DNA of 64,000 nt from an uncultured Candidatus Saccharibacteria bacterium (GCA_964503775.1 CAZDBS010000001.1:9621-73620); one strand, 5' to 3'; shown: positions 4,699-47,012, counted from the stretch's first letter. Numbers and translations are program-made. The notes: a model not told the origin generated them from the letters alone.

Positions 4699-4780
4699 AA
4701 TTGAATTTGATTGTGATGATGCTCACAGCAAGTTTGCTTGCTTTGTAGGAGTATACTAGAGGTGTAAACAGGAGAGATTT

Positions 4781-5203
4781 ATGAACAGCGATGATCAAGG
4801 CAAGAAACCATATGTGGTCAATATCGAGGACCTGACGAAAGCCAATACAAACTTCCGTACTGCCCAGTGGACTGGTCAATATTTTCAGATGACTCTCATG
4901 TCTATACCGGTAGGCGGAGAAGTCGGGTTAGAGGTCCACCCTGACACTGATCAGTTCTTGCGACTCGAGCAAGGTAAGGCCAAGGTGCTCATGGGACTAT
5001 CCCAGGATAACTTGGATCAAACATTTGAAGCTGAAGATGATTTTGCAATCTTCGTTCCTGCTGGCACATGGCACAACATCATCAATGATGGCGACGAAGA
5101 TCTGAAATTGTATTCCATCTACGCCCCGCCACACCACCCGTTCGGCACCGTTCACGCGACATACGCCGACGCCCAAGCTGCCGAAACGGCCGAAGAGCAC
5201 TAA
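4781..5203 (+). CDS. Cupin-domain protein
   Basis: Small beta-barrel signature, GGEVGLEVHPDTDQF...FVPAGTWHNIIN (two cupin motifs). GGAGAG RBS upstream. Confidence 0.7.
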   Translation: MNSDDQGKKPYVVNIEDLTKANTNFRTAQWTGQYFQMTLMSIPVGGEVGLEVHPDTDQFLRLEQGKAKVLMGLSQDNLDQTFEAEDDFAIFVPAGTWHNIINDGDEDLKLYSIYAPPHHPFGTVHATYADAQAAETAEEH

Positions 5204-6781: not shown

Positions 6782-7948
6782 TCAGTCTGCTGCGCAGCTT
6801 TGGGTGCTGACGGATGTATTCGAAGTTTTAGCAACTTCTACCTTATCCGAGAACTCTGAGGCAGCAATCGTATAACCGTATCCATCCTCAGTAACTGCCT
6901 TCGCGAATGTCATACCGGCCACTTTCCCACTAGCAAGTAACATAGGCCCGCCCGAATCACCCGATTCAACATCGGCCTGAACTTCATACACCATGCGACG
7001 ATTGATACTTGAGTCATAGATATCGCGCCCCAGTACACGTACCCGATTTATGACAGCACCAGGGGTAACTGTCAATCCCCCTCCTTCTGGATAGCCCAAC
7101 AACGCTACGACCGAACCTTTGGGCGTTGCTTCTGGGTCAAGCGAAAGTGGAGCACCGGCTAGATCTCTCACCAGCAGGAAAGCTACGTCTAAACCCGGAT
7201 CGAAGAAAACTGGTGTTGCTCCGTGTTTACCATTTCGATCGTAGACTACCGGACGACTGACGCCCGCTACAACGTGGGCATTGGTTATGACTAGGTCTTC
7301 GCTTACCACAAAACCTGAACCGGTTAGTATCCCGCCACACCCAAACCCCTGAATTTTCACTGTTGAGGCGGAGGCTTTGTCGGCGGCAGTCTGCAGCTCG
7401 GGTGAAGCAATAAGTGGAATCGTCACTTGGTGGCGACCCTCGACAGTCAGACCCTGTAGAATTTCCGGATTTACAAAACGTTTCAGCTGCGCCAGTACCG
7501 TTGGCGGTGTTGGCATAATTCGATTCATCGTTCGCACAACAAATGAACTTTGAATGTCCCTATCGCCCATAGTAGTTGGTAACTGCGCGAGGCTGGCAGC
7601 AAGTAGCCAGACGACTATCAGTACCGAAGTGACACTCACCATGACACCGAGTGAAGATTCGACAAATTTCAGCACGCTTCTATCAGTGACTTTTTTTAGT
7701 CTGCTGCCCAAGCTATCACCGATACCCGACATCGAAAAAGCAATCGCGAAGACAACCACGATGCCCAAGATCAGGTTAATTTCTGAACTTATAAAATACC
7801 TAAACAACATAGGCATCAGCCAACTAGCCAGCAGCAGGCCTAGGAAAAAGCCGACAATCGAAAACAATTGCCGAGAAAACCCAATACGCAGTCCTCTGCC
7901 CACAGCGGCTACGAGAAATAGGATGATAATACCGTCAACTATATTCAT
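6782..7948 (-). CDS. CvpA-family membrane domain fused to trypsin-like serine protease (MarP-like)
   Basis: N-terminal CvpA-like 4-TM region (MNIVDGIIILFLVAAVGRGLRIGF...). C-terminal S1 protease motifs TNAHVVAG (His), a candidate Asp in GLDVAFL, and GDSGGPM (Ser). Confidence 0.8.
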   Translation of the reverse strand: MNIVDGIIILFLVAAVGRGLRIGFSRQLFSIVGFFLGLLLASWLMPMLFRYFISSEINLILGIVVVFAIAFSMSGIGDSLGSRLKKVTDRSVLKFVESSLGVMVSVTSVLIVVWLLAASLAQLPTTMGDRDIQSSFVVRTMNRIMPTPPTVLAQLKRFVNPEILQGLTVEGRHQVTIPLIASPELQTAADKASASTVKIQGFGCGGILTGSGFVVSEDLVITNAHVVAGVSRPVVYDRNGKHGATPVFFDPGLDVAFLLVRDLAGAPLSLDPEATPKGSVVALLGYPEGGGLTVTPGAVINRVRVLGRDIYDSSINRRMVYEVQADVESGDSGGPMLLASGKVAGMTFAKAVTEDGYGYTIAASEFSDKVEVAKTSNTSVSTQSCAAD

Positions 7949-8010
7949 ACTTCAGCAATCCCGATCATTACCTGGATATATTGTAAACCCACTACCAAGA
8001 GGACGCGATG

Positions 8011-8727
8011 TTACGCACTGATCACCGAAGCCAACATATCACCGAGCACATATGCCAGAGTAGCAGCTATGCCACCCAGCAACAGGGTCTCGACTAGAGA
8101 TTTCCATCGATTGGTCGCCGTAACCCGTCCTTTGAGATAGCCGATCATCCCAAATGTTAGTGCTGTTAGGATTAGTGATGCATAGAACATCGTGTGTTCT
8201 TCCAACGAGGCACTGAGACCGATAAAGTACGAAACGAGCGGCACAGCACCGGCTGCACCAAACCCAGCAAAAGTTGCAGCCGCATCTTTAAAAGCTATGG
8301 TTTTGGAGGTGTCGGTGTTGACCACGCCGAACTCGTTGTGCATCAAATGTCTGATGACTTTTGACTCTTCCTTCATAGCTTCGTCCATAGCTTGTTGAAG
8401 CATTTGACCCTCAAATCCATAGTCGTTTTGGAAATGATGCTTGAGTGATGTCGCTACACGTATGTCACTCGTGGCATACCAATTGTGATAGCGCTTCTCA
8501 GCAAGTATTTTCTGTTGCTGTTCCGACCGTCTCGACACATAAGCACTGGCGGCCATCGAGAAACCGTCACCGACAAGGTTGGCGATACCTAAAATAAGCA
8601 CGAACTTAGGCGAGATGCCTGCACCGTAAGCGCCGGCCACTACTGCAAACGTCGTCACCGTCCCATCCACAGCACCATAGACAAACTGAGCAAAATAGGT
8701 GTTAAATTTGTGTTTAAGGGTGTTCAT
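8011..8727 (-). CDS. VIT1/CCC1 family iron/manganese transporter
   Basis: FVYGAVDGTVTTFAVVAGAYGAG N-terminal signature, a central cytoplasmic helical region and C-terminal TM helices. Confidence 0.75.
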   Translation of the reverse strand: MNTLKHKFNTYFAQFVYGAVDGTVTTFAVVAGAYGAGISPKFVLILGIANLVGDGFSMAASAYVSRRSEQQQKILAEKRYHNWYATSDIRVATSLKHHFQNDYGFEGQMLQQAMDEAMKEESKVIRHLMHNEFGVVNTDTSKTIAFKDAAATFAGFGAAGAVPLVSYFIGLSASLEEHTMFYASLILTALTFGMIGYLKGRVTATNRWKSLVETLLLGGIAATLAYVLGDMLASVISA

Positions 8728-34435: not shown

Positions 34436-35881
34436 TCAGGATAATTGTACTTCATCTGTCAGGGGCTCGTCGAGTCGCCGAACCTTGAGCTTCATGATGA
34501 AAATGATAGTAAGCACGGCGACATAGTAGAGAATGAACTGCTCTCTGGTAATCTGTACCTCCCTAAGCGCTCCGGGTATACGCGCCAACAACTCGACGAG
34601 CTGAACGATCACCCCCAGGACCGTTCGCGCTGGCCAGGCTAACCAACCGGCCAGGTACGGCGAAAACATACCAGCTAGTCCAGCCACAGCTGTCAGTAGC
34701 ATAGCCATAGGGACTAACGGCAAGATGACTAGGTTTGCCAGCAAGGCCACTATAGATAATTCGCCGAATATGTAGGCGATAAGTGGTATGGTCATGAGTT
34801 GGGCGCTTGTCGTCTCGATGATAATCTGCGGTACCAGCCGCGGCTTTTTGGCTTTATAGAGTCGTTTGGTGATAGTTGGAGCCACTACGATAATTCCGAA
34901 AAAGGCTAAGAACGATAGATACCAACCGAGATCAGTCCAGAAATACAATGGCTGGAACATGGCACTGATTGTGGCCGCCGTGATCAATAGTATAAATGGC
35001 TGAATAGTTCGCCCAAAATACCACGCCCAGAGTGTCAGTGTTGAGACAATTGCGGCCCGTACAATCGAGGCACTAAATCCCGTAATAGCTATGAAGACAC
35101 TGATCAAACCAAGCGATGAGATCGTCGTGAGATATTTGGAGCGCTTTGATAACATTCGCCTCATGGTATCCACCAAAATCGTCAGGTTATAACCCGACAC
35201 GGCGACAATATGTGTCAGTCCTGTCGCCGTGAGTTCTTTGGTTAGATCATCAGGTAGTAAACTCCGTGCCCCGACCAGGAACCCCAGACCCAATGAAGCC
35301 TGAGGTTCCGGTAGGGCTGAGTATAACCCTGCAAAAAACCGACCGCGTATGCGTTCGACAAACGAATCGCGTCGACCGATAATCTCGATGTCGGCAAAAC
35401 TCATAGCTGCTTGATTGGCACCAAAACCACGGCGCAACTTGCCTGTTACGGTGACGATGTCACCCCGGAGTACGCCCGGACTGAAGCCTTTGATAGCAAT
35501 TTTACCCGGGACTTCAGCATCGTCATTATCACGGACATCCACGATGTGAAACGATAGTTGTCCTCTGTCACTATAGGCCGCATCGTCACTGACGATTCCT
35601 TGCAGCGTCACCGTACGGTCAAACCAATCATCATAGTGTTGAATTCCGCCGAGTAGTGTCTGACCTCGCCACAAGCCCAACGACATACCCAGTGTCATCA
35701 TGACAAATAGCGCCGGCCATTTACGTTTGAAGACGAGAGGCATTAACAGAACAGACTCAAATGCATAGCTTATGTTGGGCGGATGGCCGAATCGAGCCCA
35801 CAACAACCCCCCAAGCATCCCCAGACACAATACGACGACAAACCAGGTTTGCGGTACCCGTCGGCGCCAAATAGACTGCAT
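34436..35881 (-). CDS. comEC: ComEC/Rec2 DNA internalisation channel (481 aa, no C-terminal metallo-beta-lactamase domain)
   Basis: DUF4131-like OB region, then a competence domain (TGLTHIVAVSGYNLTIL...). The protein ends after the TM core. Confidence 0.8.
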   Translation of the reverse strand: MQSIWRRRVPQTWFVVVLCLGMLGGLLWARFGHPPNISYAFESVLLMPLVFKRKWPALFVMMTLGMSLGLWRGQTLLGGIQHYDDWFDRTVTLQGIVSDDAAYSDRGQLSFHIVDVRDNDDAEVPGKIAIKGFSPGVLRGDIVTVTGKLRRGFGANQAAMSFADIEIIGRRDSFVERIRGRFFAGLYSALPEPQASLGLGFLVGARSLLPDDLTKELTATGLTHIVAVSGYNLTILVDTMRRMLSKRSKYLTTISSLGLISVFIAITGFSASIVRAAIVSTLTLWAWYFGRTIQPFILLITAATISAMFQPLYFWTDLGWYLSFLAFFGIIVVAPTITKRLYKAKKPRLVPQIIIETTSAQLMTIPLIAYIFGELSIVALLANLVILPLVPMAMLLTAVAGLAGMFSPYLAGWLAWPARTVLGVIVQLVELLARIPGALREVQITREQFILYYVAVLTIIFIMKLKVRRLDEPLTDEVQLS

Positions 35882-37052: not shown

Positions 37053-37095
37053 GCTTACATGATAACAAGAATGGGGGCAAGTATCTCAGATTTGT

Positions 37096-37185
37096 GGCCC
37101 AGCGGGGTCGCTACGCTCCTCCGCTCAGACATGCTCGATGCAAGCATCTGCGCGTGTCTTCGCTACACCGAACCCGCTTCGCGTG
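37096..37185 (-). repeat. Degenerate tRNA-Lys 3'-half copy interrupted in the T-loop by the conserved ~60-nt insert (copy A)
   Basis: Minus-strand sense: cgcgaa-gcgggttcg | gtgtagcgaagacacgcgcagatgcttgcatcgagcatgtctgagcggaggagcgtag | cgaccccgctgggcc. The flanks match the tRNA-Lys T-arm and 3' acceptor. Confidence 0.6.
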
Positions 37186-37204
37186 TTCCAATCTCACAGA
37201 GATC

Positions 37205-37266
37205 TCTCCATGAAAAACACCCACGCAAGGTGGGTGAATTTCATGGAGGGCCCAGCGGGGCTCGGT
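37205..37266 (-). repeat. Perfect 21-nt duplicate of the tRNA-Lys 3' end (cgagccccgctgggccctcca) with its own terminator hairpin
   Basis: 37246-37266 is identical to the 3' end of the intact tRNA at 37437-37457. It is followed, in minus-strand sense, by tgaaattc and the hairpin cacccac-cttgc-gtgggtg-ttttt. Confidence 0.7.
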
Positions 37267-37436
37267 CACCTTCGGCGACCCCGGAACTTTCATACTTTCA
37301 ACGGAGTTGAAAATCTGAAAGATTCCCTTGCGATCCGCCACTGGCGGATCTCACCCCCGACACGCTCCGCGTATCGAGAGCCCGAACTCACTAGAATCTC
37401 CAAATTCAAAACCCCTCCTTCGAGGGGCTCTGAATT

Positions 37437-37512
37437 TGGAGGGCCCAGCGGGGCTCGAACCCGCGACACGCGGCTTAAAAGGCCGCTGCTCTACCAGCTG
37501 AGCTATGGGCCC
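37437..37512 (-). tRNA. tRNA-Lys(UUU), CCA encoded
   Basis: The reverse complement is gggccca-ta-gctc-agctggta-gagc-a-gcggc-ctTTTaa-gccgc-gtgtc-gcggg-ttcgagc-cccgc-tgggccc-t-cca. Confidence 0.9.
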
Positions 37513-37575
37513 AAACCCAAAAACTACTCCTGTAAATAAAGCATATTTACAGATGAAAAGCAAATCAAACTACTC

Positions 37576-38061
37576 TCACTTATCTTCCTTTTCGCCGCCG
37601 TGGTTTTCAAACATGATAGTTATTAGACTCACGCCGACGGCAAAAAGCACAATCCAGGTTTTGTATGTTTGAAACAAACTCCAGACCGATGAGTTGCGCA
37701 GCGAATCTCGCGCGCCATAAGGTAAATAATCCGCTATGAACACCGTGATAAGCGCTACAACCCCAACAGATGGAGCAATCTGTGTGATGAGTTTACTGGC
37801 AGATTTTTGTGAGTCTCTAAAGTACAGTGCGATCAGTACCCCAGGTGCTAGGATCATAGCCAGCTGCACAAATGAATCCAATGGCAGAGATATCGATCCC
37901 TGGAGGTTTTTAACACCCGTAGAAGCCGCTTGGCCGATATTAGCTACCAATACTGAACCTGCACAGAGTGCCAGCACCACGAAGGCGCTATGGGTCTTCA
38001 TAACGATGAGGCCTAAGAATACTACCAAGAATAGACCAGCCAGTATCATATCGATGGTCAT
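37576..38061 (-). CDS. Polytopic membrane protein (hypothetical)
   Basis: I chose the start at MTIDMILAGLFLVVFLGLIV (M56 of the track ORF), which avoids overlap with the upstream DUF192 gene. 4-5 TM helices. Confidence 0.45.
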   Translation of the reverse strand: MTIDMILAGLFLVVFLGLIVMKTHSAFVVLALCAGSVLVANIGQAASTGVKNLQGSISLPLDSFVQLAMILAPGVLIALYFRDSQKSASKLITQIAPSVGVVALITVFIADYLPYGARDSLRNSSVWSLFQTYKTWIVLFAVGVSLITIMFENHGGEKEDK

Positions 38062-38083: not shown

Positions 38084-38602
38084 CTATGGGTTGCTGGGGA
38101 TAAATTCGAGACGTTGCCCGGAACGTAACTTTGACGCTTGGCCGGCGGCAACTTCCAAGACATACCTTGCTGGTTTCGTTGGCTGAAAGACTTTCGGGTA
38201 GGTATTGGGTTTGACGTTACGCTCAACGGTTACGATCCGCTTATTCGCATCAATCCATATGATATCGATGTCCATACGCATGTCTTTCATCCAAATGCCA
38301 TGCCGGTCATCAGTCTCAAAAACGAACAACATACCATCGTTACCAGGAATCTTGGTTCGATTGGCAAGACCTCGTTGTTTCTCAGTTTCGGTCTTGACAG
38401 CCCTGGCGCACATGAGCTTGGTAGAAGTCGACCTATCTACGATCGTCACTCTGCCACCACTACAAGACACCACTGTTGGTCGTTGCTGTTGGGTTAGTAT
38501 GCCAAGCCAAATAGCTAGAAGTAGCAGAAATATGAGTTGTGGAATAAATCTAGGCGCCGATTTTATCTTTGCGGTGACGCTGCTTAGCGTTTTTCTCGAC
38601 AT
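38084..38602 (-). CDS. DUF192 (COG1430) family protein with signal anchor
   Basis: GMLFVFETDDRHGIWMKDMRMDIDIIWIDANKRIV...YVLEVAAG is the DUF192 core. The start is uncertain (38602 or 38626), and either choice overlaps the rimK 3' end. Confidence 0.6.
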   Translation of the reverse strand: MSRKTLSSVTAKIKSAPRFIPQLIFLLLLAIWLGILTQQQRPTVVSCSGGRVTIVDRSTSTKLMCARAVKTETEKQRGLANRTKIPGNDGMLFVFETDDRHGIWMKDMRMDIDIIWIDANKRIVTVERNVKPNTYPKVFQPTKPARYVLEVAAGQASKLRSGQRLEFIPSNP

Positions 38603-39455
38603 ACTCGATAATTTTTGTAGCAACATCTCGGTTGGTCATTAATTCTGGTGTCTTAATACTGGCAGACGAGTTAACCTCGAGCACGAGTGGACCCTTCTCA
38701 GACCGCATCATATCGACACCGCAGATCGTCAATCCCATAGCTTTGGCAGCTCGGATGGCAGTTTTCTCTTCTTCGTCAGTCAATTTAACTGGTTTACCAA
38801 CACCACCCTGATGCGTGTTAGACCGGAAATCGTCATCAAGACTCTGTCTCTGAACACTGGCTACAACTCGACCACCTACCACAAGAGCACGAATATCCGT
38901 ACCGGCTGATTCTTTGATAAACTCTTGAACCAGGAAACCTACGTTCTCGACAAAGAACGCCTGCATCACGGCTTTGGCAGCTTTGGTAGTTTCGGCAAGC
39001 ACCACTCCGTTGCCATGAGTACCACGAGCGACTTTGATAATTACTGGCGCACCGCCCACTAGCTCTATCACTGCATCAAAATCAGCGGTCTCACGGGCGA
39101 AGACCGTCTTGGGTACCCCTACGCCGTTTTTGGCTAAGATCTGATAAGCGCGAAGCTTGTCGCGTGAGCGTACGATAGATATAGAACTGGCAGTTGTGTA
39201 TACACCCTGCATTTCAAACTGTCGAACGACAGCCGAGCCATATTTCGTATAGCTCTGAGCGATACGTGGAATAACAGCGTCGATATCGTGGAGCGGCTCA
39301 CCTTTGTAATACACCAGCGGGTGGCCTTTCTCAATTGTCATATAACACTTCGCGTAGTTCACGATGCTGACTTTGTGCCCATGCTGCAACGCCACTTCTT
39401 TGAGGCGTTTGGTTGTGTAGTTGGCAGAACCTTTGGAGAGTATGACAATGTTCAT
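38550..39455 (-). CDS. rimK: RimK-type ATP-grasp alpha-L-glutamate ligase
   Basis: Collinear with E. coli RimK from memory: MNIVILSKG..YTTKRLKEVALQHGH, DAVIPRI, RDKLRAYQILAKNGV, GAPVIIKVARGTHGNGVVLAET, DIRALVVGGRVVA, DFRSNTHQGG, CGVDMMRSEKGPLVLEVNSS. Confidence 0.88.
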   Translation of the reverse strand: MNIVILSKGSANYTTKRLKEVALQHGHKVSIVNYAKCYMTIEKGHPLVYYKGEPLHDIDAVIPRIAQSYTKYGSAVVRQFEMQGVYTTASSISIVRSRDKLRAYQILAKNGVGVPKTVFARETADFDAVIELVGGAPVIIKVARGTHGNGVVLAETTKAAKAVMQAFFVENVGFLVQEFIKESAGTDIRALVVGGRVVASVQRQSLDDDFRSNTHQGGVGKPVKLTDEEEKTAIRAAKAMGLTICGVDMMRSEKGPLVLEVNSSASIKTPELMTNRDVATKIIEYVEKNAKQRHRKDKIGA

Positions 39456-39459
39456 ATTG

Positions 39460-40839
39460 TTACTCCTTTATGCTTAATGAAGGGTTGATTAGGAAACGAC
39501 CGCCTAGAACTCGCCTGCCTATGAGAACCGGGAAACGCATGGATCCACGATTAGTCAGTGTGAAAGAAGTCACAAACGAGCGGCCACCCAGTCGTAACCG
39601 CGTCCTAATTATATACCTTCGCTCTGTAACTTTATCCGATTTTTTTACCAGAGATACCCCGAAGTCTTCGCTTTCGCATAGTCGCAATTTATCGATTCGA
39701 TCTTTGCGAGCAACTTCCGGTACCTCAAACTGAAGCACTGTTTTGTTGCCACGTTTTACCTCACGAATGTTTTCGGCGTGGATTGATGAGCGATATGCAC
39801 CCGTATCAACCTTCGCATGAGCGTCGGTAACACCAAGTTCCGGCAAATCAACAGTTTCGTGCAGTCCTATGACCTGTAATTTCCCATGAGGCAATCGTTT
39901 GTCTAATTTAATGCGTGATTTTGCCATACGAGCTACGTATTTATTGAACTCGTCTATGATAGCCACTTGATCGCCCGACGTATCACCAGTCACGATTTGC
40001 GAACCTTGATTGGCTTCCAATACTACATACTTGGTCTGTTTGAGATTTGGTAGAACATCTACACCTGAAACCTGGAGGCCGACCGCGTCTGCAGCCTGTT
40101 CCGCCAGCTCGAATACTTTTTTTGGCACTTGAGAACTCGGGATAAACGAGGAAGCACCACCTGCTGACTCATTGTTTAGATGGCTTCCTTCTTTGCCAAC
40201 CCGACGTACTGCCACAACCGCCTTGCCGCCATAAACCTGAATTCGATAGTCAAACTTATTGGCTATATAGTGCTGTACCAGAAATGTCGTCTCTGGATAA
40301 TTTTTGATGATAGCCAATGCTTTCTTCTGCGATTTCGCTAAGAAGTTCAATTTACCCTTTTGGCCGTTGGCGTCTTTGATAATCAGCGGATATTCTAGGC
40401 TGGTTCGTTCTAGTGCATATACAGTGTGTTGTGGAGCGCAGTAAAGTGTATCGGCTACTGGTACGCCGTTTGACCAGAAACGAAACTGTGACACTAACTT
40501 ACTTCCGTCATTTTTGTTGGCAACGAGACTATCTGAAAAAGGTATGCCTATCGCCTGTAGGTAGATTGATAGAGCAGCTGCCTCATCTGGCATACTCATC
40601 CAGCGCTTGAAATATACCCAAGTATAGCCCTGTATATACCGCTCGGTTCTAGCATCAAAAATGGTTGCCACATTGTTTTTAATTTCAAAGATGAGGTCCT
40701 CAAGTGCTACATAGTCGATATCGATACCTTCTAGACCCGGTCGTTTTTGAAGTCGCTTCACAAAACCACCGAACCAAGTACTGTTTTCACTACGACGCTC
40801 AGTAAAGACCACGAGTGCTCTAGGGTTAGACTTTTTCAT
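39460..40839 (-). CDS. ATP-grasp ligase fused to C-terminal retropepsin-like (PF05618 'ATP-dependent zinc protease', RimB-type) domain
   Basis: ATP-grasp blocks PLIIKDANGQKGKLNF, FLVQHYIANKFDYRIQVYGG and SGVDVLPN...VVLEANQGSQ. The C-terminal 140 aa carries VIGLHETVDLPELGV..AHAKVDTGAYRSSIHA and RFPVLIGRRVLGGRFLINP. Confidence 0.75.
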   Translation of the reverse strand: MKKSNPRALVVFTERRSENSTWFGGFVKRLQKRPGLEGIDIDYVALEDLIFEIKNNVATIFDARTERYIQGYTWVYFKRWMSMPDEAAALSIYLQAIGIPFSDSLVANKNDGSKLVSQFRFWSNGVPVADTLYCAPQHTVYALERTSLEYPLIIKDANGQKGKLNFLAKSQKKALAIIKNYPETTFLVQHYIANKFDYRIQVYGGKAVVAVRRVGKEGSHLNNESAGGASSFIPSSQVPKKVFELAEQAADAVGLQVSGVDVLPNLKQTKYVVLEANQGSQIVTGDTSGDQVAIIDEFNKYVARMAKSRIKLDKRLPHGKLQVIGLHETVDLPELGVTDAHAKVDTGAYRSSIHAENIREVKRGNKTVLQFEVPEVARKDRIDKLRLCESEDFGVSLVKKSDKVTERRYIIRTRLRLGGRSFVTSFTLTNRGSMRFPVLIGRRVLGGRFLINPSLSIKE

Positions 40840-41767
40840 GAGAGTCTTTCATTTCGCCATAAGCCAACTCTTGAAGATACTGCATGAGTACAGGGATTTT
40901 GACTTCCGGCTGTGCACCAACTTGAATAGCTGGTTGGTCGTTAACTTCGAGGATGTAGTGCTTGCCAGTCTGATTGTTGATGATGAGATCAACACCCGCG
41001 AAACCACTGCGTCGCACTTTGTCGGCAGCCTTCAATACATCCCTTTGCTGGATGTCAGAGAGCGTACTTATCGGGACAAACTCAGCCTCGGCGCCCGCTG
41101 ACGTGTTATTAACATGCGTACCGGAGTTTTGGTCACGCATTCGCTTCATAACGAGGCGAATTTTGCCCCCCATGACAAGTACTCGATAGTCGCAGTCATT
41201 GGGTATAAACTCCTGCAGGACAAAAGACTGTTCCGGGTGGTTCGTCAGAGCGATTTTAAGTTCGTCGTAATTATTGACTAAGTAATTCATCTTGCCACCG
41301 AACGTGTCGGCCGCTTTGGCGATGAAAGGGTAGTCGAAGCGAGGATGTTTCTTGAACACCAGCAAAATCTCGCGTTTGCTGCTCATGAAGGTATTGGGCA
41401 ACGGCACATCACCACCTGACATCGTTACAAGTTCACTGACTTTAGTGTCGCTCAACACGCTCAATGGTTCTTCGGTAGTGACAGGGATACCTTGTCTCTT
41501 AAGATAAGTTACAGCTGCGAGGGCTTGTTGGGGAGCCATGAGCCACATTTCCAGATCAACGGCAGCGAAAGTATCGAGGCGCCGGTCAGTCATCGAGTCG
41601 GTTACGATTAACTCATTATCGATGATCTCGGTATGTAAATCTTTCAGGGAACCCTGAAATAACTGTAGTCCATACTCACCTTCCACAGCTTTGAGGGGCT
41701 CGAACATGATCCGATAATAATCGGTTTTGTGCTTACGATAACTAAAAAATACGAGTACGTCTTTCAT
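40826..41767 (-). CDS. Divergent RimK-like ATP-grasp ligase
   Basis: YPFIAKAADTFGGKMNYLV, FVLQEFIPNDCDYRVLVMGGKI, NNTSAGAEAE, AGVDLIINNQTGKHYILEVNDQP. Its 3' end overlaps the next ATP-grasp gene by 14 nt. Confidence 0.7.
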   Translation of the reverse strand: MKDVLVFFSYRKHKTDYYRIMFEPLKAVEGEYGLQLFQGSLKDLHTEIIDNELIVTDSMTDRRLDTFAAVDLEMWLMAPQQALAAVTYLKRQGIPVTTEEPLSVLSDTKVSELVTMSGGDVPLPNTFMSSKREILLVFKKHPRFDYPFIAKAADTFGGKMNYLVNNYDELKIALTNHPEQSFVLQEFIPNDCDYRVLVMGGKIRLVMKRMRDQNSGTHVNNTSAGAEAEFVPISTLSDIQQRDVLKAADKVRRSGFAGVDLIINNQTGKHYILEVNDQPAIQVGAQPEVKIPVLMQYLQELAYGEMKDSHEKV

Positions 41768-41808
41768 AGCATATACCTCGTGTGCAGCTTGCCTTGAGAC
41801 CAGGCTAT

Positions 41809-42387
41809 TTACGCAGCCTCTTTTAATAGATGTTTGTTTACGCGCTCAATCAACCACAGATAAGCCAAAACAATTGTATATTCCTTGCTTTCGTCACTCA
41901 CCGCCTCACCTAAGTTATGTCGTACTACCTCGTGTAGTTTGTGCATCGCCTCTAGTGCCCGTTCAGTGTCATCGCTATGCTCTGGGTTTGCTAACAATCT
42001 CGCGATTCTTGGAACTTCTTTATGTCGGTCAGGCTTTGGGGCTGGGACATCGCCTCGTATCCGTATAGTAACTACTTTGCCAAAAGTTTCCACAAATCCA
42101 CCCACAAAATCATCTCGCGGCTCGACACCACTCAATAATTTTCGTTCACCCTCACCTGGCACGTATATACGTCGGCCTTTTTTGCCGCACTGGAAATACT
42201 TCAACTGATCTGGGTCGTTTGGTTCAGGCGTATTTACAACGACCGGGATCTCACCTATTTCAGGAAAGTCATCTTCAAAACCACGCAAAAGCTCTGTACC
42301 CAAAGCCTCCATAGCTTCAGGGGTCAAGAGAGCCTCATGTTGGGGATCTTGATTATGGTTTTCTCCATTTGACGATACTTCACTCAT
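41809..42387 (-). CDS. Acidic 192-aa hypothetical protein, first gene of the ATP-grasp operon
   Basis: No recognisable domain. Same strand, 41 nt upstream of the first ATP-grasp gene. Confidence 0.45.
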   Translation of the reverse strand: MSEVSSNGENHNQDPQHEALLTPEAMEALGTELLRGFEDDFPEIGEIPVVVNTPEPNDPDQLKYFQCGKKGRRIYVPGEGERKLLSGVEPRDDFVGGFVETFGKVVTIRIRGDVPAPKPDRHKEVPRIARLLANPEHSDDTERALEAMHKLHEVVRHNLGEAVSDESKEYTIVLAYLWLIERVNKHLLKEAA

Positions 42388-42462
42388 GAGGTGTATTTTA
42401 CCATAGATCTAGTTATTTGGCAATGCCCTCAATCTGTTTAAAACCTATCTATCAAATCACTT

Positions 42463-42567
42463 CTATTGTGAGGAAACCCGCCAAAATGCCGCAACTATCA
42501 CAACTAATACGATTACCAAGATAGCCGCAAGCATTATTACAAAACCATTTTCTGTCAATCGCTTCAT
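42463..42567 (-). CDS. 34-aa peptide consisting only of the GF...[WT]RV N-terminal module (tentative)
   Basis: My translation is MKRLTENGFVIMLAAILVIVLVVIVAAFWRVSSQ. It is below the ORF-track cutoff, and I saw no strong RBS. Confidence 0.3.
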   Translation of the reverse strand: MKRLTENGFVIMLAAILVIVLVVIVAAFWRVSSQ

Positions 42568-42629: not shown

Positions 42630-43736
42630 CTAGAATATTCGACGTTTTGGCTTATCTTTAAACTCTTCTAGCAATTCCGCTTGTTTTTTACTGAGTTTAG
42701 TTGGCGTATCTACGAGAATAGTCACGATATGGGAACCTCGACTGGAGCCTTTGAGATGAGGTACGCCATGGCCAGATAACTTGAAATCTGAACCGCTTTG
42801 CGTGCCAGCTGGAACCTTCATATTTACTGGACCATCGACTGTTTCGACTTCTATCGTCGTGCCAAGGGCGGCATCAACCATCTCGACATGTTCTTTGGAT
42901 AGGATAAGGTCACCTTCGCGGGTAAATTTCTTGTGTGGTTTGACCCTTACATTGACATAGAGATCGCCTTTCGGTCCGTTGGCGATAGCCTCACCGTGCT
43001 CACGCAAGCGAATAGTGGCCCCATCATCAATACCGGCTGGGATTTTGAGATTTATGGTTTGCTGCTCGGGTGAAGTACCTTTGCCCCGACACACGCTGCA
43101 AATTTTCTCCGGTACTTTACCTCTACCGTTACAGACATGACAGACAATTGCCTGTTGGATATTACCGAAAATGGTTCGAGTAGCCGTGACCACTTGTCCT
43201 CGTCCGCCACAAGTTTCACAAGTTTTGAGCTCATGGCCTGGCTCGACTGTCGTACCTTTGCAGTGTTCGCAAGTATCATCCAGACGAATATGCAAATCTT
43301 TCTCGACACCAAACACTGCTTCTTCGAAACTTAGTTCAACACTGGTCTGGACGTCGTGACCTCGCGCTTGACGACCCCCACGCTGTTGCCCACTGAATCC
43401 GCCGCCGAAGAAACTACCCAATATATCCCCGAGACCCAAGTCTCCGAAATCAAAATGAACATTTTGGCCATCAAAGCCGCCAAAACCATTAAACCCACCA
43501 CCGTCACTCGCGGCACTTGATCCAACGCCGGCATGACCAAATTGATCATAACGTTTGCGTTTCTCGCTGTCTTTCAGAACTTCATACGCTTCGTTAAGCT
43601 CTTTGAACTTACTCTCATCGCCACCCTCTTTATCTGGGTGATGCTGGACGGCCAGCCGACGAAAGGCTTTTTTGATCTCGTCAGCACTGGCATTTTTGGA
43701 AACACCTAAGACTTCGTAATAGTCTCGTTTGGACAT
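42630..43736 (-). CDS. dnaJ: Chaperone DnaJ
   Basis: J-domain with HPD (QHHPDK), G/F region, and four CxxCxGxG zinc-finger repeats. Confidence 0.96.
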   Translation of the reverse strand: MSKRDYYEVLGVSKNASADEIKKAFRRLAVQHHPDKEGGDESKFKELNEAYEVLKDSEKRKRYDQFGHAGVGSSAASDGGGFNGFGGFDGQNVHFDFGDLGLGDILGSFFGGGFSGQQRGGRQARGHDVQTSVELSFEEAVFGVEKDLHIRLDDTCEHCKGTTVEPGHELKTCETCGGRGQVVTATRTIFGNIQQAIVCHVCNGRGKVPEKICSVCRGKGTSPEQQTINLKIPAGIDDGATIRLREHGEAIANGPKGDLYVNVRVKPHKKFTREGDLILSKEHVEMVDAALGTTIEVETVDGPVNMKVPAGTQSGSDFKLSGHGVPHLKGSSRGSHIVTILVDTPTKLSKKQAELLEEFKDKPKRRIF

Positions 43737-43742
43737 TAGACC

Positions 43743-45638
43743 CTACTTATCTTTTTCGTCTACGACTTCACCCTCGACAGGCTCATCGGTTTTCTTGTCA
43801 GTATCCTTTTCTGAGTCAGCATTGGCTTCTGTGCCTTTTGCTGCTTCATACATCTTAGCGCCAATTGGCATAATTTTGTCAGTCAGATCCTTGGCGGCTT
43901 TTTCAATTTCATCTTTATCAGTAGATTCCAGGGCTTTTTTGGCCTCCGTAACAGCCTCATCGATGGTTTTGACATCTTCCTCGGCCAGTTTGTCTTTATT
44001 CTCAGACTTCATCTTTTCAGCTTGGTATATAGCGCTATCCAGCATATTTTTGGCTTCAGCGGCTTCACGCTTCTTCTTGTCTTCCTCGGCGTGTGCTTCA
44101 GCCTCTTTGGCGGCTTTTTCAACCTCGGTTTTATCGAGGTTCCCAGAGTTCTGGATGGTGATGCTCTGTTCTTTACCCGTGCCTTTGTCTTTGGCGGTCA
44201 CATTCAGTATACCGTTGGCATCGAGATTGAACGTCACTTCGATTTGTGGTACGCCGCGAGGCGCTGACGGGATACCGTCCAGTACGAAACGACCCAGGCT
44301 CTTGTTGTCGACCGACATCTCACGTTCTCCTTGCAATACATGAATCTCTACTGACGACTGTCCATCGGCAGCTGTTGAGAATACTTCGTTCTTGCTGGTT
44401 GGGATAGTGGTATTTCGTTCGATGAGTTTAGTCGTCACACCACCCAGAGTCTCGATACCAAGACTTAAGGGCGTTACATCGAGCAGGAGGACGTCTTTGA
44501 CATCTCCCTGCAGGACACCACCTTGGATAGCGGCACCGACAGCCACAACCTCATCAGGATTGACACCTTTGAGCGGTTCTTTGCCAAAGATTTCTTTGAC
44601 CTTATCGATGACAGCCGGCATGCGCGTCATGCCACCAACCAAGACAACTTCGTCGATGTCTTTGGCTTCTAGACCAGCGTCTTTGAGTGCTTTTTTGCAT
44701 GGTTCGACAGTCTTGTCGATCATTTCTTGGACAAGCTCGACGAGCTTAGCGCGCGTTAACTTGTATTCGAAGTGCTTTGGACCATCTGCATCAGCTGTGA
44801 TGAAAGGCAGGTTGATGTCAGCTACTTCGGTTGTCGAGAGCTCTTTCTTGGCCTTCTCGGCTTCGTCTTTGAGGCGCTGCATAGCAGCGTTATCACCTTT
44901 AAGATCGATTCCTTGTTCTTTCTTGAACACCTCTAGGAAGTGGTTGACGATGCGATTGTCGAAGTCTTCGCCACCGAGATGCGTATCACCATTGGTACTC
45001 TTAACTTCAAACACACCATCACCTAGTTCGAGAATAGAGACGTCGAACGTACCACCACCGAGGTCGAAAACCACGATTCTCTCTTCTTTTTTACTGTCCA
45101 GACCGTAAGCCAGAGCGGCAGCAGTTGGCTCGTTGATAATTCGTTTTACCTCGAGTCCAGCGATTTTACCAGCGTCTTTAGTAGCTTGACGCTGCGAGTC
45201 GTCAAAATATGCGGGGACGGTGATGACGGCTTCAGTAACAGGTTCACCTAGGTAGGCCTCGGCGTCGGCTTTCAATTTGCCTAGAATCATAGCGCTGACT
45301 TCTTCCGGGCTATAGTCTTTGTCAGCCATGGTTACTTTGACGCCACTACCGCTTTTCACGATCTTGTAGGGCATGATGTCGATGTCTTTTTGGACTTCCT
45401 TGTCCTCAAACTTGCGACCGATGAGTCGCTTGACACCATAGATGGTATTCGAGGCATTGGTTACACGCTGCCGTTGTGCAACTTGCCCGACGAGACGTTC
45501 GCCGTTTTTGTTGATAGCTACGACAGATGGCGTGGTGCGATTACCTTCAGCATTGGCGATGATTTCTGGCTTGCCAGACACCATGACTGCCATAGCCGAG
45601 TTAGTAGTACCTAAGTCAATTCCGATAATCTTACCCAT
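43743..45638 (-). CDS. dnaK: Chaperone DnaK (Hsp70)
   Basis: [17 protein letters not shown], and universal Hsp70 blocks. Confidence 0.98.
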
Positions 45639-45672
45639 AAGATTGCTCCTTTTATGCTAAAAATGTGAGATT

Positions 45673-45699
45673 CTGGCACTCATTATACTACAGTGCCAA
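45673..45699 (-). promoter_or_regulatory. CIRCE-like operator (degenerate) upstream of dnaK
   Basis: ctggcactc-N9-cagtgccaa, compared with the consensus TTAGCACTC-N9-GAGTGCTAA. Confidence 0.55.
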
Positions 45700-45719
45700 T
45701 TGATAGAAATTGTATTATT

Positions 45720-45746
45720 CTGGCACTCTCATGTCAAGAGTGCTAA
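45720..45746 (-). promoter_or_regulatory. CIRCE operator between grpE and dnaK
   Basis: ctggcactc-tcatgtcaa-gagtgctaa. Confidence 0.75.
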
Positions 45747-45748
45747 TC

Positions 45749-46216
45749 CTATTTCGATGAAACTTTTACCATCGCTGGACGGATGACCATGTCGCCGACC
45801 TTATAACCTGATTGCAATTCTTCGACTATTGTCTCTACCTCACCTTCACCTTCTTCCACGCTGACTGCTTCATGCAGGTTTGGATCAAATGGTTCGCCGA
45901 CAGTCTTTATTTTCTCTACACCTAAATCAGATACAGTTTTTTCGAATTGCTTTACAATGCCCTCGATACCGCGTACGAACTCGTTACTCTCCAAGTCTTT
46001 CGGAATGTGTTTTAGAGATCGCTCAAAGTTATCTATGACCGGCAGCAAGTCGCGGATAATACCTGTCTTGACTAAATCTTTGAGTCCAGTTATCTGCTCT
46101 TCGTGACGACGGCGAATATTCATAGCATCTGCCCTCTCGCGTTGCAAAGCTTCAGTCAATTCCCGAAGTTTTGCTTCAAGATCATCGTGCTTTGGGTGCT
46201 GTGGTTTTTTACTCAT
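45749..46216 (-). CDS. grpE: Nucleotide exchange factor GrpE
   Basis: Coiled coil ALQRERADAMNIRRR, and C-terminal FDPNLHEAV...V..GY..GD.VIRPA.V.V. Confidence 0.9.
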   Translation of the reverse strand: MSKKPQHPKHDDLEAKLRELTEALQRERADAMNIRRRHEEQITGLKDLVKTGIIRDLLPVIDNFERSLKHIPKDLESNEFVRGIEGIVKQFEKTVSDLGVEKIKTVGEPFDPNLHEAVSVEEGEGEVETIVEELQSGYKVGDMVIRPAMVKVSSK

Positions 46217-46225
46217 TCTTCCCTC

Positions 46226-46924
46226 CTACAAAACCTGCTCTAATGCTTCACCGGCTCTTTGGACTAAAGCAATCGTACCTCTGTAGCTTTGGCGGGTTGG
46301 ACCCAAAACCCCGATATAACTTCGATCACTATACGGGCTACGGAAACGACTAATAATTAAACTACAACCAGAATTGCGACCTATGGGATTCTCTTGACCA
46401 ATATAGACACTCAACGGTTTGTTAGGCGCCGCTTCACGCAGCCAGGGCTCCAAGTTATCGAGTAAACGAGCTACCTCCTTCACTTGACCTGCTTGCATAA
46501 ATTCCGGCTGACCAAAGAGATTGGAAAGACCACTCATGTACAGCTGATCACCAATTGTAGCGAGACCTAGATTATGTGTCAGTTCGACAAGCGTATCGAC
46601 GGCGTTACGAATGGTGCGCTCGGGTAACCCACCGTCCATCACACGCGTAGTAAGGGCCCGTTCTGCTCGTCGTTCAGAAGCCGTCTCGTCGATATCGGCG
46701 ACATTGTTCACGTAATATCGATAGCCTTTATCGGTAGGGATGCGTCCAGCCGAGGTGTGGGGCTGCATGATGTAGCCTTCTCGTTCAAGATCGGCCATCT
46801 CAGCCCTTATAGTTGCACTAGAGACGTCGAAAGCGCGCGCCAACAGGCTCGAGCCCACTGGGCTCGCTACTTCGGCATATTGCTCAACAATAGCTCTTAG
46901 GATGGCCGTTTGTCTCTCTGTCAT
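46226..46924 (-). CDS. hrcA: Heat-inducible repressor HrcA (compact, ~232 aa)
   Basis: MTERQTAILRAIVEQY...SSATIRAEMADLEREGYIMQPHTSAGRIPTDKGYRYYV wHTH. I chose the start at M22 of the track ORF because the CIRCE operator lies just upstream of it. Confidence 0.85.
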   Translation of the reverse strand: MTERQTAILRAIVEQYAEVASPVGSSLLARAFDVSSATIRAEMADLEREGYIMQPHTSAGRIPTDKGYRYYVNNVADIDETASERRAERALTTRVMDGGLPERTIRNAVDTLVELTHNLGLATIGDQLYMSGLSNLFGQPEFMQAGQVKEVARLLDNLEPWLREAAPNKPLSVYIGQENPIGRNSGCSLIISRFRSPYSDRSYIGVLGPTRQSYRGTIALVQRAGEALEQVL

Positions 46925-46945
46925 ACTGTCTATATGGTAAGTTAG

Positions 46946-46972
46946 CTGGCACTCCGGAGTCAAGAGTGCTAG
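46946..46972 (-). promoter_or_regulatory. CIRCE operator upstream of hrcA-grpE-dnaK-dnaJ
   Basis: Minus strand: ctagcactc-ttgactccg-gagtgccag. Confidence 0.75.
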
Positions 46973-47012
46973 CAGCTTCTCGCGCAATGATATAGTAGAT
47001 TGATAGCACTAT

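Follow-up and report, generated by a model that had tools for sequence, protein, structure and literature searches.

Why would a Saccharibacterium carry three ATP-grasp ligases of the RimK/LysX class side by side, one of them fused to a retropepsin-like protease domain, and what might such a set of enzymes act upon? The question is raised by a cluster of minus-strand genes in a 64-kb stretch of DNA from an uncultured Candidatus Saccharibacteria bacterium (GCA_964503775.1 CAZDBS010000001.1:9621-73620). We refer to the whole of this stretch as the window and use its own coordinates throughout. Our analysis identifies the block of three ligase genes as a Saccharibacteria-specific elaboration of the known Rim module, with two extra ligase clades and a new fusion topology, and not as a categorically new system. 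It further suggests that the canonical RimK probably tails ribosomal protein S6 and that the fused protease domain trims the tail. The cluster is laid out as follows, from its 5′ to its 3′ end:

41809-42387, minus strand: orphan open reading frame (ORF) of 192 amino acids, first gene of the probable transcription unit
40826-41767, minus strand: lig1, an ATP-grasp ligase of 313 amino acids
39460-40839, minus strand: fusion protein of 459 amino acids, ligase plus RimB-like domain
39916-40839, minus strand: ligase part of the fusion (the "fus" clade), residues 1 to ~308 of the 459-residue protein
39460-39882, minus strand: RimB-like retropepsin domain of the fusion, residues ~320-459 (~140 amino acids)
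38550-39455, minus strand: canonical RimK of 301 amino acids
38084-38626, minus strand: DUF192 protein of 180 amino acids

The recomputed junctions, from 5′ to 3′ of the operon, are +41, -14, +4 and -77 nt. These values reproduce the five genes, coordinates and spacing of the initial annotation, and set the last overlap, which it had left without a length, at 77 nt. Both motifs that it quoted, VDTGAYRSSIHA and FPVLIGRRVLGGRFLINP, are found in the translation, and its domain calls (ATP-grasp, PF05618, RimK, DUF192) are upheld by Pfam and NCBIfam.

An orthodox RimK beside two divergent ligases

By its profile matches the 301-residue protein is an orthodox RimK of the alpha-L-glutamate ligase family. 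It matches PF18030 (Rimk_N) with 123 bits and PF08443 with 196 bits, passes TIGR00768 (243.8 against a cut-off of 143.4) and falls just under the equivalog model NF007764 (320.2 against 331). In a neighbour-joining (NJ) tree it groups within a RimK clade of 58 sequences. In P. aeruginosa RimK the poly-Glu chain is contacted by S7, R8, S14, R64 and S68 (PMC10092738); the Saccharibacteria RimK clade keeps S7 in 50 of 58 sequences, and S/T14 and R64 in all 58.

The other two ligases are of a different kind. The PF08443 match is weak in lig1 (44.9 bits) and reaches 69.9 bits in the fusion, both fail TIGR00768 (61.2 and 86.5, respectively), and neither matches Rimk_N. Both lie below the family cut-offs not only of RimK but also of LysX, MptN and CofF; the LysX model TIGR02144 (cut-off 275.6) gives scores of 55, 65.5 and 134, those of lig1 and the fusion being 55-65. 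The two are related to each other over their full length (27% identity between lig1 and the ligase part of the fusion, E 1e-34), and RimK aligns to the fusion (E 6e-14) and to lig1 (E 6e-6) across the ATP-grasp core only. The initial description of three tandem paralogous ligases therefore holds in that all three are of the RimK/LysX class, but they are not equivalent copies: one is a canonical RimK and two come from an old sister lineage.

The catalytic elements of the ATP-grasp fold, namely the ATP-binding Lys, the Q-E-F/Y hinge, D-Y-R, the H-L-N-N loop and the Mg-binding D...E-x-N, are invariant in both families. Across 28 homologues of the fusion the invariant residues are K155, Q189, D197, R199, H220-L-N-N (to N223), D261, E275 and N277; across 16 homologues of lig1 they are K151, G157-G158, Q185, D193-Y-R195, H218-x-N-N-T-S (to S223), D260, E274 and N276. 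Neither family, on this evidence, appears to be a pseudo-enzyme.

Structural comparison points in the same direction as the profiles. A PDB sequence search with lig1 and the fusion finds LysX (1uc8, 1uc9, 3vpd) and RimK (4iwx, 5zct, 7qys) nearest. The AlphaFold2 (AF2) model of the fusion has a mean predicted local distance difference test score (pLDDT) of 84.5, with a disordered linker at residues 309-320, and its top Foldseek matches are RimK (5zct, 7qys, 4iwx), ArgX (3vpb) and LysX (3vpd), with E 1e-16 to 1e-15 and alignments spanning ~305 columns, the N-terminal pre-ATP-grasp domain included. Glutathione synthetase, cyanophycin synthetase and D-Ala-D-Ala ligase were considered and rejected as identities: lig1, the fusion and RimK score 16-69 bits with these models against cut-offs of 243-877. 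The possibility, raised at the outset, that the extra ligases are orthologues of such enzymes fails on these scores and on the identity of their best solved relatives, RimK, LysX and ArgX. Instead, lig1 and the fusion ligase represent a RimK/LysX-class ATP-grasp lineage found almost solely among Saccharibacteria.

The lig1 family comprises at least 264 clusters, named merely "ATP-grasp domain-containing protein" or "hypothetical". A search with the fusion protein returned at least 64 clusters, nearly all of 444-487 amino acids and carrying PF08443 and PF05618, the exceptions being one truncated 355-residue match and three weak matches; homologues with a name are just "RimK/LysX family protein" of Candidatus Saccharimonadales or Microsaccharimonas. 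Public names for lig1 and fusion proteins also include "glutathione synthase/RimK-type ligase-like" and are otherwise generic or hypothetical. We also asked whether isoelectric point (pI) marks the clades. RimK proteins and fusions are basic throughout (median pI 9.7 and 9.5) and lig1 ranges from 5.6 to 9.5, which allows no firm conclusion.

The fused protease domain retains the retropepsin motifs

Residues 323-456 of the fusion match PF05618 with 81.7 bits, above the cut-off of 27. The best NCBIfam match of the fusion is the RimB equivalog NF052261 (93.4 bits, under the cut-off of 200), and the RloA1-3 models give 34-53 bits against cut-offs of 210-280. We therefore regard the C-terminal domain as a PF05618 member of RimB type, and make no claim of orthology to RimB. 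In the AF2 model it is a beta-rich domain lying beyond the disordered linker, and the nearest solved chains in the PDB sequence search are 9g59, 9g58 and 2pma.

In all 28 homologues, K343, D345, G347 and A348 (K-x-D-T/S-G-A) and G441-R442 (L-I-G-R-R) are invariant. We take the G441-R442 motif to be the counterpart of the G-R-N/D motif of HIV protease. D345 corresponds to D31 of P. fluorescens RimB, the catalytic Asp of that enzyme (PMC11957791), and the D-T-G motif is intact.

The block is conserved across Saccharibacteria

To place the block among its relatives, we used a profile scan of one genome per species, seeded with the divergent ligases. This recovered 58 loci, almost all from Candidatus Saccharibacteria, Nanosynbacter included (~57 species-level Saccharibacteria loci). 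All ORFs in these loci were classified by phmmer, and NJ trees of all ATP-grasp proteins were built with 30 bootstraps. The architectures are given here with the numbers of the loci that show them:

lig1, fusion, RimK (the order of the window): ~33 species-level loci, always between dnaJ and comEC
Fusion and RimK only: L039, L046, L050, L053, L056, L062
Divergent ligase, directly then free RimB (140-146 amino acids), then RimK: L040, L042
Divergent ligase, free RimB and RimK with another gene intervening: L044, L048, L051
Two divergent ligases, free RimB and RimK: L043
Divergent ligase and RimK without RimB: L047, L055, L057-L060, L063

RimK is present at nearly all the Saccharibacteria loci recovered, and is missing only from partial contigs and from L064; it is the near-constant member of the locus, to which RimB and the extra ligases are accessories. 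The block singled out in the initial annotation is conserved as a unit at the ~33 loci that share the window's order, those of the oral Nanosynbacter clade among them. This order persists at fusion identities of 35-41% in dozens of distantly related genomes, and the block is therefore not a chance arrangement.

That the enzymes are unrelated in function, and adjacent merely through the general synteny of small Saccharibacteria genomes, is a very improbable account. The whole neighbourhood from dnaK-dnaJ to comEC is indeed syntenic across the phylum, and in L048 an opposite-strand gene parts the divergent ligase from rimB-rimK. Yet the other genes of the interval vary and the ligase and RimB genes stay together, every ligase is of the same RimK/LysX class, the 14-nt overlap and 4-nt gap suggest translational coupling, and the divergent ligase has undergone a real gene fusion with RimB.

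The NJ tree resolves three clean clades, with 34 lig1 and 35 fusion sequences beside the RimK clade, and monophyly of lig1, like that of the fusion clade, is recovered in 29 of 30 bootstraps. A further ~25 divergent ligases, from lineages with a single such gene, are about equidistant from lig1 and the fusion and far from RimK. As between recent duplication and distinct clades, the tree thus favours the latter, and lig1 and the fusion ligase are old distinct paralogues that did not arise by recent tandem duplication. The simplest history would begin with an ancestral neighbourhood of divergent ligase, rimB and rimK, followed by fusion of the ligase with rimB and then by duplication of the ligase into the lig1 and fusion lineages. 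The joining of adjacent genes probably gave rise to the fusion, since the divergent ligase and free rimB adjoin in some lineages. A published locus with a free RimB-like gene is that of Southlakia epibionticum, which reads dnaJ, a hypothetical protein of 1053 amino acids, free RimB-like, RimK, two hypotheticals, tRNA-Lys and ComEC (PMC10633639 supplement).

Individual loci show further variants of these genes. In L020 (8368-9792), a canonical RimK bears a C-terminal RimB-like domain of its own (474 amino acids), besides the usual fusion of divergent ligase and RimB adjoining it. In L027 (6568-7504), which represents a Nanosynbacter sp., lig1 is broken into ORFs of 172 and 155 amino acids; sister genomes have it intact at 311 amino acids, and the split is a frameshift, a pseudogene or an assembly error. 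The L052 contig, high in GC and binned as Bifidobacteriaceae, bears a lone divergent ligase of the Saccharibacteria type (6893-7849), with ~31% identity to the ligase portion of the fusion, amid genes for a Ser/Thr kinase, a sigma factor and an M3 peptidase. Transfer between Saccharibacteria and their actinobacterial hosts could account for this, as could mis-binning of the contig. Finally, L064 (5269-8254), on a contig binned as Gammaproteobacteria, encodes a multi-pass membrane protein, a fusion of ATPgrasp_ST with a C-terminal PF05618 domain (474 amino acids) and a divergent RimK-like ligase (289 amino acids). The Pseudomonas Rlo system may have a fused analogue in this cluster, which shows that ATP-grasp enzymes acquired C-terminal retropepsin domains on more than one occasion.

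S6 as the likeliest acceptor and a putative tail cycle

We searched all locus DNA for rpsF with S6 queries from E. coli, B. subtilis and Saccharibacteria, and found it in L038 and L066-L068 only. In L038 (1500-9464), lig1 is preceded at ~3 kb, on its own strand, by rpsF (ending ...KAKEE) and ssb, with a short dnaJ-like gene and a fourth ATP-grasp-like gene in between. In L068 (2862-9250), a single strand carries rpsF (ending ...KRVEE), ssb, rpsR, a dnaJ-like gene, a gene for a 391-residue protein, lig1, the fusion and RimK. The L038 S6 used as a query gave 26 S6 homologues, most of them close relatives, and most of these end in -EE, -EEE or -EEEE; the exceptions end in -KEG, -DDKE, -ADEV and -KGE. 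A C-terminal Glu-Glu is reportedly the acceptor for E. coli RimK. Because most S6 homologues end in -EE and rpsF adjoins the block in two lineages, S6 is the likeliest substrate of the canonical RimK, and the poly-Glu contact positions kept in the Saccharibacteria RimK clade speak for the same substrate. The earlier caution that the substrate need not be S6 is not contradicted by these data, yet for the canonical RimK the -EE ends and the rpsF linkage favour S6.

The biochemistry of the Pseudomonas enzymes offers a framework for the remaining components. RimB is a retropepsin-like endopeptidase active as a dimer; it strips poly-Glu from RpsF, requiring ~five contiguous Glu, and stimulates poly-alpha-Glu synthesis by RimK, and the RimB-RimK hybrid RimBK, a canonical RimK with the protease at its N-terminus, has proteolytic activity (all PMC11957791). 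The initial proposal that the cluster both adds and trims a tail is consistent with these findings. We favour, as the probable reading, a joint model in which RimK tails S6, the fused RimB domain trims the tail and the extra ligases share divided tail work. This model builds on the observed homology, intact active sites, conservation and S6 tails, and would assign the substrate, the amino-acid specificity and the order of action as follows. RimK would lengthen the genome-encoded -EE end of S6, and the fused RimB domain, dimerised via the oligomeric ligase moiety and possibly within a hetero-oligomer with lig1, would trim the tail back; it may also modulate the ligases, as free RimB does in Pseudomonas. 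lig1 and the fusion ligase would carry out non-redundant steps of the same tail cycle, such as priming on the K-rich native tail (...KAEE), or the addition of a different or capping residue. Alternatively, they may place a similar tail on a second acceptor.

Several observations weigh against this reading. rpsF was not found in the window with the same S6 queries, and it is linked to the block in just 2 of ~57 loci. Some lineages dispense with the extra ligases and RimB, and co-transcription is not universal, because the opposite-strand gene in L048, between the divergent ligase and rimB-rimK, splits the block. Transposon sequencing (Tn-seq) in Southlakia epibionticum classes rimK and the free rimB-like gene as non-essential (PMC10633639 supplement), which argues that the module is regulatory or accessory, as in Pseudomonas. 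Finally, the putative acceptor groove differs between the ligases. At the columns of the poly-Glu contacts S7, R8, S14, R64 and S68, lig1 has F, S, E/K, E and K and the fusion clade has F, S/A, G/A, K and S/G; the S7 equivalent is thus Phe in both, and the R64 equivalent is Glu in 32 of 34 lig1 sequences and Lys in all 35 of the fusion clade. The N-terminal alignment of RimK with the lig1 and fusion families is not fully reliable, and with that uncertainty the changed groove residues would speak against simple poly-Glu elongation by lig1. They also suggest that lig1 and the fusion ligase bind their acceptor differently from RimK.

The groove bears directly on a possible, though less probable, alternative in which only RimK acts on S6, and the divergent ligases with the fused RimB tail another carboxylate acceptor, be it a protein C-terminus, a peptide or a cofactor. 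The ligases would then adjoin rimK via common descent and shared protease use. Consistent with this, both clades depart from RimK at the groove positions, lig1 reversing the charge of R64 (to E), and other members of the RimK family have moved on to new acceptors, LysX and ArgX to LysW, and MptN and CofF to cofactors. In addition, in 35 lineages the partner of the fused RimB is the divergent ligase, not RimK, and D. psychrophila RimBK failed to glutamylate the RpsF of P. fluorescens SBW25, the sole RpsF tried (PMC11957791). Against it, no candidate acceptor gene is conserved in the locus and the slot upstream of lig1 is variable. A search of the intergenic DNA for a LysW-like carrier or other small acceptor ORF yielded no LysW-like ORF and just one hydrophobic peptide of 34 amino acids, and no window ORF of at least 80 amino acids ends in two acidic residues in all 64 kb. 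The divergent ligases also adjoin rimK at the recovered Saccharibacteria loci, an association biased by the seeding of the survey with these same ligases.

We regard as unlikely a further alternative, that the cluster chiefly makes a free or envelope-bound poly-amino-acid (poly-alpha-glutamate, mixed or branched), with the RimB domain setting the chain length and S6 secondary or absent as a substrate. RimK does make free poly-alpha-Glu, and RimB stimulates this activity (PMC11957791). At least 11 lineages have up to four ATP-grasp-like genes in a row, and in many loci rimK is followed by a membrane-anchored DUF192 protein and a small membrane protein. The layout of L038 recalls a split cyanophycin-type polymer synthetase: a stand-alone Mur-ligase-type gene (7264-8556) lies between the fusion and rimK, and it most closely matches the M domain of cyanophycin synthetase (TIGR02068 positions 481-856, E 3e-47). 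This M-domain-like gene is found in L038 and in none of the other loci, no exporter is conserved in the block, and the S6 -EE ends and rpsF linkage point instead to a protein acceptor. Saccharibacteria rely on their hosts for amino acids, and for such host-dependent cells a storage polymer would be costly. As an observation in its own right, the L038 gene hints at a ligase product with free side-chain carboxylates.

The joint model of RimK tailing and RimB trimming can also be extended, tentatively and with a good deal of doubt, to a Saccharibacteria "C-terminal tail code" on the ribosome or a second protein. Three ligases (four in some lineages) would divide among them priming, poly-Glu elongation and capping or the addition of a different residue, and the retropepsin would erase the result. 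If true, this would be a bacterial counterpart of the tubulin glutamylation/tyrosination cycle, retuning translation in ultra-small epibionts during host association.

Relation to characterised systems

RimK, RimB and the RimBK hybrid have already been characterised. The window resembles the Pseudomonas RimK/RimB system (RimABK; Little 2016, Grenga 2020, Thompson 2022, Little 2025) in having a canonical RimK beside a PF05618 retropepsin with an intact D-T-G, in the -EE end of S6 in genomes related to the window's, and in its proposed add-and-trim logic. In contrast to RimABK, the block has no gene for RimA, an EAL phosphodiesterase; its RimB is not free but fused to the C-terminus of a non-canonical ATP-grasp ligase, with a domain score of 93 bits against the cut-off of 200; and it has two more RimK/LysX-class ligases. 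RimBK (Desulfotalea psychrophila DP2392; also in Flavobacteriales and Rhodobacterales; PMC11957791) likewise places a RimB-like protease and a RimK-type ligase in one polypeptide. There, however, the protease is N-terminal to a canonical RimK, whereas in the window it is C-terminal, at residues 320-459, to a divergent ligase that lacks Rimk_N and scores under the RimK cut-off, and a separate canonical RimK is encoded alongside. The window fusion is thus not a RimBK as defined.

Among solved or curated proteins, those nearest to lig1 and the fusion after RimK are LysX/ArgX (with LysW), MptN and CofF, which set a precedent for RimK-family paralogues gaining new acceptors; unlike LysX/ArgX, the window locus has neither a LysW-like carrier gene nor lysine or arginine pathway genes. 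RloA/RloB/RloC of Pseudomonas aeruginosa (PMC12239564) also tie PF05618 retropepsin-like peptidases functionally to an ATP-grasp protein. In that system RloA is secreted, RloC is of the ATPgrasp_ST type and the seven-transmembrane inactive transglutaminase RloB is required; none of these is in the window block, whose protease domain is internal to a cytosolic fusion and which has no RloB-like gene. Tubulin tyrosine ligase and its TTLL relatives, together with carboxypeptidases, offer an analogy only, in which ATP-grasp paralogues with initiation, elongation and capping roles and a trimming peptidase act on an -EE tail; there is no specific homology past the ATP-grasp fold, and Pfam TTL matches are faint.

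The statement in the initial annotation that this is not a characterised architecture stands insofar as none of the literature searched and no source annotation describes it; a RimB-RimK fusion as such is known, in the other arrangement found in RimBK. In full-text literature on Saccharibacteria, Patescibacteria and TM7 we found no description of RimK in Saccharibacteria or of the lig1 and fusion clades. RimK is likewise unmentioned in the top-ranked literature on Patescibacteria, the candidate phyla radiation and TM7, and a TM7x transcriptome preprint makes no mention of the block genes. The sole paper found to pair Saccharibacteria with ATP-grasp deals with fusion/fission protein families in Archaea and appears to have no bearing on the block.

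Saccharibacteria genomes are ~1 Mb or less and have lost most biosynthesis, and more than half of the sampled species retain ~3.2 kb of paralogous tailing ligases and a protease beside the chaperone operon. This retention in reduced genomes suggests that post-translational control of the ribosome or another target matters to the epibiotic lifestyle. Defining the acceptor and amino-acid specificity of the extra ligases would extend the RimK/RimB model beyond Proteobacteria and would show how RimK-family enzymes diversify. Genetically tractable Saccharibacteria exist, and the block is therefore open to direct testing.

Genes flanking the conserved core

The 192-residue protein, the DUF192 protein and the small membrane protein that follows it lie outside the conserved core. 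The first of these has no Pfam or NCBIfam family. Its AF2 model (pLDDT 79, predicted template modelling score 0.79) is mainly helical and has no fold match in the PDB by Foldseek (best E 2.8). Originally described as acidic, it is only mildly so (pI 5.1, 36 D+E against 24 K+R), and its C-terminus, ...LLKEAA, is non-acidic. Among the loci, homologues occur in L007 and L008 only, the two closest relatives, and an exhaustive HMMER search of 1.84 billion representatives found five members of the family, with the variable ends KEAA, RELS, VEAR, PAEAA and PEE.

These data bear on the suggestion that the 192-residue protein is a component of the system, or the substrate whose tail the ligases build and the peptidase shortens. 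Its gene does lie 41 nt upstream of lig1 on the same strand, probably on the same transcript. We nonetheless find this role hardly credible: just five representatives are known in the 1.84 billion searched and only the two closest loci have them, the ligase block is conserved far past the family, the C-termini are variable and non-acidic, and elsewhere the slot is empty or holds an unrelated ATP-grasp-like gene. The 192-residue protein is a lineage-specific insertion that does not belong to the core and makes an implausible candidate for a conserved substrate.

In the oral clade and L003, the slot upstream of lig1 carries no gene. A gene for a protein of ~350-390 amino acids without a Pfam match fills it in at least 11 lineages, at these positions:

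L001, 4025-5068
L005, 4038-5084
L022, 1339-2385
L037, 4990-6045
L038, 3986-5056
L068, 4824-5999
also in L019, L024, L033, L034 and L036

In hhalign this family aligns to the lig1 family with 80% probability (E 1.5e-5), with the Lys, hinge and E-x-N motifs in register; its hidden Markov model also detects canonical RimKs (E ~1e-6), and the 391-residue member in L068 matches the family at 98% probability. By these profile comparisons the protein is a remote ATP-grasp relative, which gives four ATP-grasp-like genes in a row in those loci. The 192-residue protein is unrelated to this family (there ~347 amino acids).

The DUF192 protein matches PF02643 (95.9 bits) and has an N-terminal hydrophobic anchor. 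It follows RimK in most loci and is absent from L010-L017, L026-L032 and L003. In several distant genomes its frame opens 41-77 nt inside the 3′ end of rimK, which suggests a conserved translational coupling:

L007, 6732-6790: DUF192/rimK overlap
L008, 9229-9287: DUF192/rimK overlap
L009, 9239-9279: DUF192/rimK overlap
Window, 38550-38626: DUF192/rimK overlap

The literature searched describes no function for the DUF192 family, and neither there nor in the locus data did we find a functional tie of DUF192 to the ligases. Next to it lies the small membrane protein:

37576-38061, minus strand: membrane protein of ~161 amino acids (start taken at M56 of a 216-residue ORF)

It has no Pfam or NCBIfam match, and by phmmer it follows DUF192 or RimK in L003, L007-L009, L020, L044-L048, L050, L053, L055 and others.

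On its upstream side the block is bordered by hrcA-grpE-dnaK-dnaJ (42630-46987), and on its downstream side by the small membrane protein, tRNA-Lys (37437-37512) and comEC (34436-35881). The window is even in base composition along its whole length, and there is no sign of a mobile element at the block. Within 37059-37539, plus-strand ORFs of 83 and 133 amino acids cross the minus-strand tRNA-Lys and its flanks and are almost certainly not genes. A promoter-like site lies 8 nt upstream of the 192-residue ORF:

42395-42423, minus strand: TTGCCA-17-TAAAAT with an extended -10 TG

This is the top match of the scan (10/12), a consensus match only, in a region where the count of such sites is no higher than the shuffled expectation. 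Between dnaJ and the gene for the 192-residue protein, the 34-residue ORF (42463-42567, minus strand) encodes a single hydrophobic helix, MKRLTENGFVIMLAAILVIVLVVIVAAFWRVSSQ. A comparable peptide, MRKMQSCQNGFIPMIICLVVVVVAVLYVSYHYVSRAQR, is legible between dnaJ and lig1 in the distant locus L003 (~4712-4828), and the ORF may represent a conserved small membrane protein downstream of dnaJ.

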